From the IMG/VR virus record IMGVR_UViG_3300011338_000078, positions 1 to 34,898 of that record: a stretch of DNA of 34,898 nucleotides; one strand, written 5' to 3'. The notes under the pieces were generated by a model, which did not search any database, was not told the origin of the DNA, and saw only the letters and a program-made list of their open reading frames with translations. This document shows, piece by piece, positions 16,532-24,290 of this stretch. Each line of letters opens with the position of its first letter. The first letter of the stretch is position 1. The DNA comes from a virus (lineage: Duplodnaviria; Caudoviricetes). The position numbers and the translations under genes were made by a program.

Positions 16532-16741
16532 ATGGTTACGTCAACAGAGCAAGCAATTAAGGCAATTCTTCGGAGGGCAAAGAAAAAAGGGTTCAAGATG
16601 AACGATATTGCGTACGCGGCTGGAATAGACCCTGCCCAGATCAGTAGATGGAGCACCGGCAAGACTATCCCTTTGTACTCCAACATCTTGAAGTTGGAGC
16701 AAGCCGTGGTCGCGCTGATAGCGGCCAAGGCGCAAGCATGA
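16532..16741 (+). CDS. Cro/XRE-family HTH regulator
   Basis: MNDIAYAAGIDPAQISRWSTGKTIP is a classic XRE HTH. 69 aa, with no peptidase domain. Confidence 0.88.
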   Translation: MVTSTEQAIKAILRRAKKKGFKMNDIAYAAGIDPAQISRWSTGKTIPLYSNILKLEQAVVALIAAKAQA

Positions 16742-17208
16742 TAGTCATGGCCATCGACCCAGGCTTATCGGGCGCCATTGCCGTGTTTATTGATGACGTT
16801 TTGATTGACGTTGTGGATATGCCAACGCATGAACTCACTCGCAATGGAAAGACCAAGCGGCAGATTTCAGCCTCCGCGCTGGCAGGCATATTCACCCAGC
16901 ATGACCCACGCCACGTAGTAGTTGAGCGCGTCTCCGCAATGCCAGGGCAGGGGGTAACGTCAATGTTTAGTTTCGGACGTTCGTTTGGCATCATTGAGGG
17001 CATCCTAGCCGCCTACAACATACCCGCCACCTACGTCATGCCTAGCGTATGGACTAAGGGCATAGGCCGTGGTGCAGGTAAGGACGCATCACGCGCACGA
17101 GCCTGCGAACTCTATCCAAGCCACCAGAAATCCTTTGCACGGGTCAAGGATGACGGGCGCGCCGATGCCGTGCTCATTGGCGCCTGGTACTTGAAGGGGA
17201 ACAAGTGA
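16738..17208 (+). CDS. ruvC: RuvC-like Holliday junction resolvase
   Basis: AIDPGLSGA, VVVERV, FSFGRSFG and DGRADAVLI catalytic motifs. ATGA overlap at 16738. Confidence 0.85.
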   Translation: MIVMAIDPGLSGAIAVFIDDVLIDVVDMPTHELTRNGKTKRQISASALAGIFTQHDPRHVVVERVSAMPGQGVTSMFSFGRSFGIIEGILAAYNIPATYVMPSVWTKGIGRGAGKDASRARACELYPSHQKSFARVKDDGRADAVLIGAWYLKGNK

Positions 17209-17402
17209 GCCTGCAAGACCAACGAACCCTCAGAGAGCACGCCGTGTACCTAGCCACGCAACTGGAGCAAGAGCGCAACGCATCACGCGACAAGACTGAA
17301 TTCTTAAAGCGACTTGTCCATCCCGAGGACTTAGGCCACGCCGTATCAACCGAGGTACGCAACCTAGCCTACCAATTACTTATCAATGAAAGCCAAGAAT
17401 GA
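17205..17402 (+). CDS. Hypothetical protein
   Basis: 65 aa, GTGA overlap, LVHPEDLGHAV. Confidence 0.65.
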   Translation: MSLQDQRTLREHAVYLATQLEQERNASRDKTEFLKRLVHPEDLGHAVSTEVRNLAYQLLINESQE

Positions 17403-18490
17403 AGCAACTATTACTGCGTCCATCATCAGCATCACGCTGGATAGCCTGCCCCGCATCAGCACGCCTGTCTCTGCAAGTACCTTATGAGGAGTCAGGTGAG
17501 GCGGCGAAGATAGGCACTGCCATCCATGCGCTGTCGGAGACTTGCTGGCAGTTGGACCAGGACCCGATGGACTTTGTTGGTAAGACGATAGAGGGTATCG
17601 TGATGACCAGGGAGAACGCTGAGTTTGCACTCGCTCATATCCGCACAGTGGCTGCGCTGGAGAAGGAACTAGGCACTATTAAGGTGGAGCAATACGGGGT
17701 TGCTTACGAGACCCCGCTTGCCAAGGTCGGCGGTACTGCGGACGTTGTTGCGTACAACCTGGACAAGTCGATCCTTGAGATTGCAGACTTGAAAACAGGC
17801 AGGCAGTGGGTGGACGCTGACTCTGCGCAGATGAAGATTTACGCGCTGGGCATCATGGGTAAGCTGGTGAAGGTATTCGACACTGTGCGCCTGACCATTG
17901 TCCAGCCCCAGACGGGTGAGAACCGAACTCACGTTACAACTGGTGACGAACTCATGGCGTGGAAAGCAGACACACTGATACCTGCTGCCGTGTCTGCTGC
18001 TGACGGACGCATCGACCCTACGCCAGAGAAGTCAGCCTGCCAATACTGTCCAGCTAAGATGATCTGCCCAGCTCAAACCAAGGCATTGGCCGCAGTACCC
18101 GTGACTGCTGACGTTACAACGCTAACACCTGACCAGGTTAGTGACTTGCTGGACAAGGCAGAACTGGTGGAGGACTTCATCACTGCGCTGCGCAAGCAGG
18201 CCACCAAAACATTGACAGAGGGTGGTGTGCTGCGGGGCTGGCAGATGGCGCCTAAACGTCCCACCAGGCAGTGGACTAAGGAAGCGGACGCGGTAAAGGC
18301 GCTGCTGTCTTGCGGCGTGCCCGAAACACAAATCTACGAGACATCAATCATTTCACCTGCTGCTGCCGATAAGTTACTCGGCAAGGACAGGAAACAAGTT
18401 TTGGATAGCGTGACCACTAAAGTAAGCAGTGGACTCACGTTATCTAAATCCCGTGGGCTAGGCGAGAGCACAGCCCTATTACAACTCTGA
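17399..18490 (+). CDS. PD-(D/E)XK nuclease, DUF2800/Cas4-like
   Basis: PSSASRWIACPAS, GTAIH, GGTAD...IADLKTG, QMKIYALG and CQYCPAKMIC. Confidence 0.85.
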   Translation: MKQLLLRPSSASRWIACPASARLSLQVPYEESGEAAKIGTAIHALSETCWQLDQDPMDFVGKTIEGIVMTRENAEFALAHIRTVAALEKELGTIKVEQYGVAYETPLAKVGGTADVVAYNLDKSILEIADLKTGRQWVDADSAQMKIYALGIMGKLVKVFDTVRLTIVQPQTGENRTHVTTGDELMAWKADTLIPAAVSAADGRIDPTPEKSACQYCPAKMICPAQTKALAAVPVTADVTTLTPDQVSDLLDKAELVEDFITALRKQATKTLTEGGVLRGWQMAPKRPTRQWTKEADAVKALLSCGVPETQIYETSIISPAAADKLLGKDRKQVLDSVTTKVSSGLTLSKSRGLGESTALLQL

Positions 18491-21191: not shown

Positions 21192-21381
21192 CGACAAATG
21201 GACGACAAATGGTAGGAATCGACGTAAACAGTGCAAATTCGGTTTTCCGACAAATGGAACAAATGGCGACAAATGGACGACAAATGGACGACAAATGGTA
21301 GAAAAATGTGTTTTGGCATAGATTTGGCAGGAAAAGACAAATGGGAGAGCGTATGTCTTAATATACGCTCCCATTTGTCTT
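21192..21381. repeat. Iteron array and hairpin, putative replication origin
   Basis: ACAAATGG occurs 8 times directly (mostly as CGACAAATGG) plus once inverted. Stem-loop at 21334-21381. Immediately follows the primase-helicase. Confidence 0.8.
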
Positions 21382-21410: not shown

Positions 21411-22058
21411 GTGGCAACAAATAAACTTAAAACATTGGCGATTACAACGCCGACCATGCCGAGCTTTCCAGCAGACAAGTTTGACGTGTTCAAAAACGCG
21501 GTCATGGTTGAGCTGACAAACCGGAAGAATACCCATGATGCGGTGTGGGGTATTGATAGGCTGGTCTGGTTGGTGGATACCGAGCTGCGGGAAAAGGTGT
21601 GGCTGCAACTGGAGCGGGTCTGGCAGGCACAGGAAGAACGCAACGACGAAAAGCTGAACAAGGCGGTCAGGGGAATGTGCAAAGCCTACGACGCGATGGA
21701 GGCCTGGGCTGCGGCCAACGGAGTCAGCGAACTACCGGACCTGGGACAGATCGAGCACCAGCGCGAGGATGGAACGGTTTTCGTTGTCGTGCCAAACGAG
21801 AAGGCGAAGCAGCTCTACTGCCAGCAGTGGCCAGGGACAACGGACAGGCAGGTCTGGACAGCAGCAGAGATTGCGATAATCCTAGCCAAGCAGGCAGGCG
21901 GTCAGCTAGGCGAGATCAAGCGGCTGTGGCCAGAGAGCAAGCTGGTATCGGTTGGCGGTCCAAGCGGGTTCGATGACATGGTCAATGACCTGGATATGAG
22001 CAAACCGAGCACGCTGCCGAAATTGTTCGACACAAAGGCGTTTAAAGGGGCTAGATGA
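21411..22058 (+). CDS. Hypothetical protein
   Basis: 215 aa, GTG start with GGAG RBS, WGIDRL motif. Confidence 0.75.
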   Translation: MATNKLKTLAITTPTMPSFPADKFDVFKNAVMVELTNRKNTHDAVWGIDRLVWLVDTELREKVWLQLERVWQAQEERNDEKLNKAVRGMCKAYDAMEAWAAANGVSELPDLGQIEHQREDGTVFVVVPNEKAKQLYCQQWPGTTDRQVWTAAEIAIILAKQAGGQLGEIKRLWPESKLVSVGGPSGFDDMVNDLDMSKPSTLPKLFDTKAFKGAR

Positions 22059-22135
22059 TGCGTAGAAGCGATTATGTGGGGATGGGCATGGGTAAGGTGC
22101 TTGGCATGGCTCAATTCGATTTAAAGGCTTTCTGA
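22055..22135 (+). CDS. Possible 26-aa minigene
   Basis: MMRRSDYVGMGMGKVLGMAQFDLKAF. ATGA overlap upstream and TGATG overlap with terS. Confidence 0.35.
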   Translation: MMRRSDYVGMGMGKVLGMAQFDLKAF

Positions 22136-22572
22136 TGGCTGGACAACCGAAAAAGACCAGCGACCTAGCAGTGCTGGACTCGCTCCAGGTCGAGGAGATC
22201 GTGGCCATGTTTGAGGCCGGCAAGTCAACGGCGCGGATATGCGAGGCACTGGGAATCGGGCGGCGGGCATTGGAAATATGGTGCGATATGCCCGATAACG
22301 AGCATAAAATTGCTCGCGCGCGCGCCCGTGCAGCAGATGTGCTCGCTTGCCAGACGCTGGAGATCGCTGACCAGGCAGCGCCAGAGGAGAGCAACCTGGC
22401 TCGCGTGCGCATCCAGACGCGGCAGTGGGTGGCAGAGCGATGGAAGCCTAGCGTCTACGCTCAACAGCGCGGTCCCGCGGTGAACATCAGCATTGGAGGG
22501 TTGCGCCTGGATGCGCTGCGTCACGTCGAGGTGGTGCAGGACGCTGACACCATGCCGCAGGTCTGTGGATAA
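22135..22572 (+). CDS. terS: Terminase small subunit (Sf6-like)
   Basis: N-terminal HTH GKSTARICEALGI, ARAR...LEIAD and RIQTRQW motifs, upstream of TerL. Confidence 0.8.
   Translation: MAGQPKKTSDLAVLDSLQVEEIVAMFEAGKSTARICEALGIGRRALEIWCDMPDNEHKIARARARAADVLACQTLEIADQAAPEESNLARVRIQTRQWVAERWKPSVYAQQRGPAVNISIGGLRLDALRHVEVVQDADTMPQVCG
22564..22572 (-). promoter_or_regulatory. DnaA box
   Basis: TGTGGATAA is the reverse complement of TTATCCACA and includes the terS stop codon. Confidence 0.6.
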
Positions 22573-22591
22573 CCATGTCTCAAGCCTATGT

Positions 22592-22619
22592 ACTTTATAC
22601 GACGGACGTTATGTTAAGT
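22592..22619 (+). other. dif-like XerC/XerD recombination site
   Basis: 11-6-11 layout ACTTTATACGA-CGGACG-TTATGTTAAGT. The right arm matches the E. coli XerD arm TTATGTTAAAT at 10/11 positions, and the outer ends ACTT/AAGT are inverted. Confidence 0.7.
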
Positions 22620-22639
22620 TGTTCAGCCTGTGACTATCC

Positions 22640-22648
22640 TGTGGATAA
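22640..22648 (-). promoter_or_regulatory. DnaA box
   Basis: Second perfect TGTGGATAA. Both copies sit in the context CTGTGGATAACC. Confidence 0.6.
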
Positions 22649-22769
22649 CCTACCCCTGTACGCGGGGTACTGGCCCGTCCGCTGGGAGGGGGGCAGCCCG
22701 ACCCCCCCCTTTGCGCCAGCAGCGGGGGCGGCAACTGCTGCACCTAAACAGACACCGCCGCCCTAAACC

Positions 22770-24290
22770 ATGACCCCTACCCCCCTACCCGTGTCACCGG
22801 CAGCGCCCACTGCCCTAAAAAAAATAAAAACTGTGCCAACTATCGCGTCCACTGTCACCGAGATGACAGAGGCACAGACTGAGCAGTCAAAGAACCCCTT
22901 CATTGAGTGGGCGAAAAAGTATTACAGGAATCCTGTAGCGTTTGTCCAGGAGGTGCTAGGCACGGAACCGGATGAGTGGCAAAAGACTTTTCTGATGCAC
23001 ATTGCCAGGGGTGAGCGCAGGATTAGCGTGAGGTCTGGGCATGGCGTGGGAAAGAGTACGGCAGCGGCCTGGGCGATTATTTGGTATGCGTTTCTGCGGT
23101 TTCCGGTGAAGATTGTGCTCACCGCGCCCACCAGCTCGCAGTTGTATGACGCATTGTTCGCTGAGCTGAAGCGGTGGGTGAAGGCGCTGCCCGAGACGTT
23201 GCAGAACCAGCTTGAGGTTAAGCAAGACAGGATTGAGTTTAAGGAATTCCCGAACGAGGCGTTTATCTCGGCACGCACATCAAGGGCAGAGCAGCCCGAG
23301 GCCTTGCAAGGGGTCCACTCGGACCACGTCATGCTGGTGGCAGACGAGGCGTCGGGTATACCGGAGCAGGTGTTTGAGGCAGCGGCTGGGAGTATGTCGG
23401 GGCATAGCGCTGTAACTTTGTTACTAGGTAATCCGGTACGCAGCAGCGGTTTTTTCTTTGATACGCACAACCGTCTGGCGGGTGACTGGATCACGATGAA
23501 GGTTAGCTGCGCGGACTCTCCCCGCGTGTCGGAGGCGTACATCGAGGAGATGAAGTCGCGTTATGGCGAGGAGAGCAACGCGTACCGGATTCGCGTGCTG
23601 GGTGAGTTTCCCAGGTCCGATGACGATACCGTGATACCTATGGAGTTGCTGGAGATGGCCACACAGCGGGACGTGGCGCCTAGCTTGAGCGCGCGCCTGG
23701 TGTGGGGATTGGACGTGGCCAGGTTTGGATCGGACAGGAGCGCGCTGTGCAAGCGCCAGGGTAACGCGGTGCTTGAACCGATTAAGACTTGGAAGAATTT
23801 GGATTTGATGCAACTGACCGGCGCCATTGTGTCTGAGTATGAGGTCCTGATGCCGAGCCAGCGTCCGCACGAGATACTTGTGGACAGCATTGGCCTGGGT
23901 GCTGGCGTGGTTGACCGGCTGCGCGAGCTGAACTTGCCTGCACGCGGGATCAATGTATCGGAGAGTCCGGCGATGGGCGGGACGTACAGGAACCTGAAGG
24001 CTGAGCTGTGGCACAAGGCCAAGGCGTGGCTGGAGCAGCGCGACTGCACCATGCCCAAGGATGATTTGTTGATCTCTGAGCTGGCCACTGTAAGGTATTC
24101 GTTTACCAGCAGCGGGAAGATTCAGATTGAGGGCAAGGACGAGATCAGGAAGCGCGGGTTGGCGAGTCCGGATAGGGCAGATGCGTTTTGCTTGACGTTT
24201 GCCTCTGACGCAATAACGGGTGCTTTTGGCTCTGCGTCCAGCAATAAGTGGGGGCAGTCACTGCGCAGGAACATACCCCGCGTAGCATAA
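22770..24290 (+). CDS. terL: Terminase large subunit
   Basis: Walker A RSGHGVGKS, Walker B LVADEAS, LLGNP, and nuclease motifs GLDVARFGSD and SPDRADA. The true start may be downstream (GTG 22833 or ATG 22863). Confidence 0.95.
   Translation: MTPTPLPVSPAAPTALKKIKTVPTIASTVTEMTEAQTEQSKNPFIEWAKKYYRNPVAFVQEVLGTEPDEWQKTFLMHIARGERRISVRSGHGVGKSTAAAWAIIWYAFLRFPVKIVLTAPTSSQLYDALFAELKRWVKALPETLQNQLEVKQDRIEFKEFPNEAFISARTSRAEQPEALQGVHSDHVMLVADEASGIPEQVFEAAAGSMSGHSAVTLLLGNPVRSSGFFFDTHNRLAGDWITMKVSCADSPRVSEAYIEEMKSRYGEESNAYRIRVLGEFPRSDDDTVIPMELLEMATQRDVAPSLSARLVWGLDVARFGSDRSALCKRQGNAVLEPIKTWKNLDLMQLTGAIVSEYEVLMPSQRPHEILVDSIGLGAGVVDRLRELNLPARGINVSESPAMGGTYRNLKAELWHKAKAWLEQRDCTMPKDDLLISELATVRYSFTSSGKIQIEGKDEIRKRGLASPDRADAFCLTFASDAITGAFGSASSNKWGQSLRRNIPRVA

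Follow-up and report, generated by a model that had tools for sequence, protein, structure and literature searches.

The DNA analysed here (the window) is a complete circular assembly of 34.8 kb (34,898 nucleotides), with a 127-nt overlap of its ends and the IMG/VR class "direct terminal repeats". Annotation of its 51 ORFs with PHROGs and Pfam describes a podovirus-like phage, with SU10-type portal and capsid, an Sf6-type terminase small subunit (terS) and a large subunit (terL). No integrase, site-specific resolvase or DNA polymerase was found among the ORFs scanned, and no tyrosine integrase in 50 whole related records, in agreement with an earlier note on this DNA that had described the phage as lacking an integrase. 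Iteron-like repeats found 3' of the primase-helicase gene are likely the phage origin, separate from the element described below. In three relatives (L334, L335 and G348), the place after the primase-helicase and upstream of terS holds a second DnaA-box cluster.

A motif scan of the window placed a dif-like core, ACTTTATACGA-CGGACG-TTATGTTAAGT, at 22592-22619, between terS and terL. Two perfect DnaA boxes, both in the same orientation, flank it at 19 bp on the left and 20 bp on the right, and the last three bases of the left box are the terS stop codon. The coordinates, spacing and orientation claimed by the earlier note for this core and its boxes, hereafter named the cassette, were all reproduced. 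The core has the layout of an XerCD site (xrs), with two 11-bp arms around a centre of 6-8 bp, the XerD arm being the better conserved. With a weight matrix built from 25 chromosomal sites it scores 36 bits, against 7.6 for its own reverse reading and 6.6 for the next-best place in the window. The XerD arm, allowing one mismatch, occurs in the window at the site itself and nowhere else, and the exact arm pair is expected by chance 2e-9 times per genome. The two boxes are the only perfect ones in the window; base composition would predict about 0.23 per genome. The central hexamer may resemble the psi centre. GC content is 58% over positions 22001-23000, and no sigma-70 promoter was found between 21100 and 22950. 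Having two boxes only, and no IHF consensus near the site, the cassette does not look like an oriC-like DnaA origin.

Table 1. Position of the features discussed in the text, in window coordinates.
Feature	Position	Strand	Remark
Cro-like HTH gene	16532-16741		
RuvC-like Holliday junction resolvase	16648..17208	+	could process XerC-made junctions
Phage exonuclease	17399-18490		
Iteron-like CGACAAATGGA repeats and inverted repeat	21192..21379	+	3' of primase-helicase
terS, Sf6-type	22135..22572	+	
Candidate 510-bp direct terminal repeat	22233..22742	.	would hold the whole cassette; a hint only
Perfect DnaA box TGTGGATAA, offset -28	22564..22572	-	overlaps terS stop; invariant in 18 close relatives
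63-codon ORF over cassette	22575..22766	+	probably spurious
XerC-type arm ACTTTATACGA	22592..22602	+	identical to chromosomal dif arm in G001, G004, G133
Central hexamer CGGACG	22603..22608	+	host centre is TGTATA
XerD-type arm TTATGTTAAGT	22609..22619	+	identical to host; 1 of 11 columns variable in 18 close relatives
Perfect DnaA box TGTGGATAA, offset +48	22640..22648	-	1 of 9 columns variable in 18 close relatives
Poly-C / G-run hairpin ending in TGCACC	22701..22744	+	matches right end of phiM5 terminal repeat
terL	22863..24290	+	likely start 22863; 54% identical to phiM5 terL

We searched for the same arms in bacterial chromosomes. A scan across GTDB for these arms around a CA-ending centre yielded 8 matches, all in Betaproteobacteria MAGs, and two of the genomes matched, a Limnohabitans (G001) and a Rhodoferax (G004), contain ACTTTATACGA-TGTATA-TTATGTTAAGT in addition. 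In these two genomes and in G133, the arms of the host dif are letter-for-letter those of the window, and the centre alone differs. Among Comamonadaceae genomes, the strict pattern was present in 65 of 301, and TGTATA was the centre in 51 of 70 matches. The polarity of KOPS, with the motif taken from 10.1101/2024.04.05.588136, flips at two TGTATA-centred sites, from 26:3 to 1:36 (G270) and from 22:1 to 3:26 (G221), which indicates that such sites are true dif. The earlier note's suggestion that Comamonadaceae dif sites resemble this one was therefore right, and the match of the arms points to this family as the likely host. A consensus DnaA box was present within 120 bp of only 1 of 25 host dif sites, so that the phage did not obtain its boxes together with dif. 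Host chromosomes as a whole have few perfect boxes (12 in 3.2 Mb, 16 in 5.2 Mb), and oriC did not stand out in this search. No convergence of KOPS on the phage site was detected (17 toward and 11 away in 11 genomes, p 0.34), and KOPS near the site point either way among relatives. Control by FtsK was rejected: the KOPS at 22775 and 22783 of the window do point at the XerD arm, yet relatives do not conserve them, and KOPS show no bias across the genome.

A looser pattern was then used to scan IMG/VR. From the 13 of 64 parts read, about 620 stretches are estimated to match. A perfect DnaA box lay within 100 bp of 86 of the 120 viral sites read, and none was present in control flanks taken 700-800 bp off (13.8 kb of control for 23.4 kb of test sequence). 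We analysed 97 box-flanked sites out of 138 distinct ones, the other 41 being set aside; these sites are related by descent, so that counts are not independent events. The site follows terS in the orientation of the window in 66 cases and is inverted in 13, the remaining 18 having no terS in the available stretch. Thus, 79 of 97 sites are just 3' of a terS of the window's family. The downstream gene varies, and includes terL types from different families: the cassette is tied to terS rather than to terL. No match to its DNA was found in cultured-phage or plasmid collections. A dif-like site was not found in phiM5, LUZ24, phiEco32 or T5, and P26218, Venkman and the other annotated stretches scored had no convincing dif core. 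Around its terS start, the cultured Methylophilales phage Venkman (MT375522, L250; 1-373, 1758-1798, 38614) carries five perfect DnaA boxes together with an IHF-like motif.

In an alignment of 27 close terS relatives, the layout of the cassette is kept in 24, and in the other 3 the site is inverted and accompanied by extra boxes. Inverted sites occur in relatives with a terL 94% identical. Box offsets of +38/+79 and +94/+104/+117 on the XerD side recur both in the 66 co-oriented and in the 13 inverted sites; they are fixed relative to the core, not to terS, and the cassette inverts as a unit. Median identity of the spacer that separates the +38 from the +79 box is 47% over 38 versions. The centre follows Y-G-N-S-C-R, with C at position 5 in 93 of 97 box-flanked sites, and is never the host TGTATA (0/97). 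Its first three bases are those of the host in 9 of 97 relatives and its last three in none. Arms, spacing and DnaA boxes are therefore conserved in relatives, where the earlier note had proposed to look for them, and it is confirmed that the cassette is a real, conserved cis-element, not a chance occurrence. By its features we predict a variant of accessory-controlled Xer sites, bound and recombined by XerC and XerD.

Another flavour of XerD arm, with CA-ending centres, was seen at 26 viral loci (L444-L469, of which 25 are listed). None of them has a perfect DnaA box within 150 bp, and one is near a terS of the window's family, so that not every kind of phage dif-like site comes with DnaA boxes. 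Several of these loci adjoin G/C-run hairpins resembling genome-end elements. Separately, four AT-rich viral contigs (L092, L119, L132 and L153) have apparent tandem dif-like cores some 60 bp apart, with no DnaA boxes.

We next compared gene content around terL in relatives. In the best 80 terL relatives out of some 9,300 matching stretches, with 59-97% identity to the query alignment, 40 had the site, 14 a serine recombinase (PF00239) between terS and terL, none had both, 16 had neither within 2.5 kb upstream of terL, and 10 were too short. Of these 16, L355 has a variant site that narrowly misses the threshold. Perfect DnaA boxes were present upstream of terL in 38 of the 40 site-bearers and in none of the 14 recombinase-bearers. 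Many relatives that lack the site thus have a serine recombinase gene of their own where it would be, so that the two elements alternate, and the 16 relatives with neither element indicate that neither is essential. On a terL tree, from which the 10 short loci were left out and to which the window, phiM5 and C72C1 were added, the two states require at least 4 changes; an independent-pairs test of site against recombinase on this tree was not significant. G348 is nested among site-bearers: core and boxes are cleanly missing between its terS stop and the hairpin element, after which comes a resolvase, and its second DnaA-box cluster, upstream of terS, is retained despite the loss of the cassette. 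Among the 50 whole records, a resolvase was found in 0 of 34 site-bearing ones and in 8 of the 16 others. For the 25 records at least 90% complete, 23 had the site with no recombinase and 2 a resolvase with no site. Named records agreed with this alternation, with an integrase and no site (phiM5), a site with no recombinase (C72C1) and a resolvase with no site near terL (MW202879). The dif-like core of C72C1 (OQ984150, L245:2320-2347), between terS and terL, has other arms and the centre CGTCCA. A clade formed by L318-L325, L348 and L351 has terS abutting terL, and no site, boxes or resolvase upstream.

Is the cassette close to a genome end? The closest named isolate by terL is phiM5 (MF074189; 54%, and 53% for the capsid), which has a related terminase and the same end element as the window. 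Its 357-bp terminal repeat, as annotated in GenBank, begins inside the 3' part of terS and stops just before the TGCACC of the hairpin, which is equivalent to position 22738 of the window. This hairpin element is kept in dif-bearing and in resolvase-bearing relatives. In 3 of 8 runs (X2, X3 and X16, from two studies), Logan contigs stop at 22742; a break at 22233 is seen in 2 of 8 (X2 and X15, again two studies). In X2, contig depths across the two borders are 21.8, 34.8 and 19.9; in X3, depth is 71.5 inside the candidate repeat for 26-31 outside, and in X16 it is 299, then 20-23. These depths are one figure per contig and not copy numbers, strain mixtures confound them, and X2 and X3 are possibly the source of the window itself. 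Depth does not step in X15, X11 is unbroken at 22742, and X1, X4 and X13 cross the region as single pieces. Bases at the 22233 and 22742 breaks are invariant in 19 and 20 relatives, respectively, and contigs of three relatives start at 22242-22257. More broadly, a contig end was found within 400 bp of 19 of 88 box-flanked sites (8.2 expected) and of 5 of 32 box-less sites (2.5 expected). GC-rich hairpins also break contigs. Two contig ends were discarded: the start of a G354 contig at the end element, explained by an allele difference 20 bases later and not counted as a terminus, and a loose contig end at 22591, which belongs to another phage with a different terS and is no junction. The cassette falls in the region that matches the annotated phiM5 repeat, and the contig data hint at a terminal repeat that would contain it, with the borders proposed in Table 1.

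A case of this kind was seen in an unrelated phage. PV763136, a cultured rV5-like E. coli phage (L494 and L495), has an exact terminal repeat of 458 bp, each copy of which contains a dif core with a non-host centre and no DnaA box. rV5 itself (DQ832317, 105,14x; L492:1500) has a dif core with a non-host centre, and this stretch is covered by 111 phage records.

Sites with the window-type centre were also found outside phages. The 60 metagenome sites with such a centre consisted of 39 of the terS type, 19 of an island type and 2 others that are phage-like. Island sites (G004:C20:71000, G012:C1:2196514, G110:C1:668004, G208:C66:9153, G283:C278:2440, G001:C2:116078, and the 19 loci L387-L438) mostly have the centre CGGGCG and a degenerate DnaA-like motif at -16; an IHF-like motif is present at -58/-59 in 18 of 21, and 11 of 21 share their full 28-mer with a terS-type phage. 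All six annotated secondary sites in chromosomes adjoin a P4-type integrase; five have a primase gene as well, which is DUF927-type in four, and the small ORFs scanned there gave neither terminase nor capsid. Islands that own an integrase still keep a dif-like site.

Everything points to recombination of one phage copy with another by host XerCD, at a centre that avoids the chromosome. In the reading that we prefer, and to which we give about an even chance, host XerCD would recombine two phage copies, closing the incoming genome into a circle and later keeping this circle monomeric. With the dif copy in the likely terminal repeat, the incoming linear genome would have one at each end; XerC and XerD would recombine them, and afterwards act on multimers of the circle. 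With its altered centre, the phage site would be kept from recombining with the host dif. At its fixed spacing from the core, and with help from IHF in some relatives, DnaA would probably build the synapse or gate the reaction, a role that we liken to that of PepA, ArgR and ArcA at cer and psi, and the RuvC-like enzyme of the phage could resolve a junction made by XerC. That DnaA is an XerCD accessory factor is suggested by its boxes' co-occurrence with the core, their joint loss and their fixed spacing. Position at the genome end and the rV5-like case favour end-joining, whereas replacement by a resolvase, the existence of the islands and the example set by plasmids favour dimer resolution; the two are not exclusive. 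Closure of the repeat could instead be made by annealing, with the phage exonuclease. The swapped-in resolvase gene is not within the predicted repeat, and resolvases as a rule require a supercoiled circle, which again favours dimer resolution. Accessory-dependent Xer recombination needs supercoiling as well, and we counted this against synapsis of linear ends. A bolder version is doubtful: DnaA would be a true XerCD accessory making closure DnaA-dependent, so that commitment is tied to growth state, and integrase-bearing islands with an identical 28-bp site would fuse with the phage and ride along in packaging.

Dimer resolution alone, as at cer and psi, is possible but somewhat doubtful. Exonuclease and annealing would close the genome, XerCD and DnaA would monomerise replicating circles, and the place after terS would simply be spare non-coding DNA. 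Alternation with a resolvase-type gene mirrors plasmids, which have either an Xer site or a recombinase of their own (10.1101/2024.04.05.588136). Integrase-owning islands with the same cores, and with the IHF-like motif at -58, fit this reading, as does the lack of an annotated DNA polymerase together with an iteron-like origin, which makes circles likely. On the other hand, none of 26 complete records has a ParA (PF13614), the partition ATPase of phage-plasmids, so that there is no sign of a plasmid state, and the site, whichever way it points, stays within the terS-hairpin interval, and it is also present in the repeat of an unrelated phage. Would binding suffice, with no recombination? Many phage copies could titrate XerCD and DnaA, stalling host initiation or segregation, or DnaA could control read-through from terS into terL. 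The scarcity of perfect boxes in host chromosomes, to which a replicating phage would add many, and the DnaA boxes kept in the terminal repeat of T5-like phages (10.1101/866236) agree with such a decoy or brake. We nevertheless consider it unlikely: such a role has no need of a constrained non-host centre or of box offsets that are fixed, and a recombinase gene would not replace it. A role in maturation of the terminus is quite unlikely. In a phage with no polymerase of its own, DnaA and an Xer nick would assist in duplicating the terminal repeat or in processing concatemers at packaging, which agrees with how strictly the site is linked to terS and the end element; but either orientation of the site is tolerated, and the cassette is absent from close relatives, L307 among them, in which the end element persists. 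Moreover, Xer cleavage leaves a 3' phosphotyrosine and not a primer end.

Integration at the host dif in the manner of IMEX, which the earlier note had put forward as separating terS from terL, is highly unlikely. It would suit a phage with no integrase, arms identical to those of the host and a Cro-like gene, and the 9 relatives with the first three central bases of the host recall the XerC side of VGJphi-type attP, as described in PMC5357621. CGGACG is nevertheless mismatched with TGTATA at both ends, so the window has no centre homology with the host dif, and the XerC-first and XerD-first IMEX routes, as outlined in PMC5357621, would both be blocked. The search for split prophages or joining reads that had been suggested gave nothing in the samples covered: no phage-host hybrid was found among the 60 metagenome sites, no integration junction in Logan contigs and no integrated tailed phage of the window's kind at the 8 GTDB-wide matches, and 6 distant terL matches in 401 Comamonadaceae genomes had no site in the stretches returned. 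The companion proposal, that self-resolution is favoured over a simple dif x dif exchange, is supported by the non-host centre. Two loci are ordinary IMEX candidates: a 6.4-kb viral contig that ends 37 bp past a host-type dif (L047:1501), and a microvirus in which a dif-like site separates the replication and capsid genes (L112:1688). Finally, chance has a negligible probability, and coding in ORF 22575-22766 is refuted as the cause of the motif. This ORF is still open at 63 codons in most close relatives, yet the amino-acid selection that could have explained the sequence is not strong (19 synonymous and 30 non-synonymous variant codons, for 69 and 19 in terS), the frame is shifted in 4 of 16 distinct versions, and the inverted sites and the rarity of the arm pair given above are opposed to both.

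For phages with fixed terminal repeats and no recombinase, the means of closing and maintaining their DNA is seldom known. A route through the host recombinase, suggested by hundreds of freshwater phage contigs and by the core in an rV5-like repeat, can be tested in xerC and xerD mutants of a laboratory strain. If it holds, DnaA would join the short list of Xer accessory proteins, and Xer use would extend to tailed phages, for a purpose other than integration. The arms of the site also offer a sequence-based hint to the host of uncultured phages. Our literature search, largely confined to open-access sources, found no tailed-phage dif-like site with DnaA boxes or in a terminal repeat.

One functional likeness is P1, where site-specific recombination by Cre between loxP sites, terminally repeated near the packaging start, closes the incoming genome. 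P1 codes for its own Cre and has headful redundancy, whereas the window phage would use a host recombinase and a fixed repeat. In phiM5, the terS-hairpin-terL layout is shared and a repeat is annotated, but the phage codes for a tyrosine integrase and its repeat has neither dif nor DnaA box, unlike the candidate repeat of the window. Compared with the dif/XerCD/FtsK system of Comamonadaceae, the phage site has the same 11-bp arms and 6-bp spacing, but another centre and no KOPS convergence, and the host dif has no DnaA boxes nearby. In T5, the injection-stop region within the terminal repeat contains DnaA boxes at precise spacings (10.1101/866236); that preprint contains 0 occurrences of "xer" and T5 has no Xer core, whereas the window phage has one. 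IMEX phages (CTXphi, VGJphi, TLCphi, gokushoviruses and double jelly-roll vibriophages) likewise lack an integrase and have a dif-like site. The Xer-using phages in the literature listings we drew on are filamentous, microviral or double jelly-roll, and IMEX phages, in the papers listed, are non-tailed and integrate, whereas the window phage has no dif homology at its centre and no junction. Similar in architecture are the cer (ColE1) and psi (pSC101) sites of plasmids (10.1101/2024.04.05.588136; PMC5357621): as in the phage, a core for host XerCD has a non-chromosomal centre and host-protein sites at fixed distances, and is an alternative to a self-coded recombinase. At cer and psi, ArgR or ArcA and PepA bind on the XerC side, whereas the phage cassette, with its accessory sequence also at fixed distance, has DnaA boxes on the XerD side or on both. 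Unlike cer and psi, it is carried by a tailed phage, beside terS, and probably duplicated at the ends of a linear genome.
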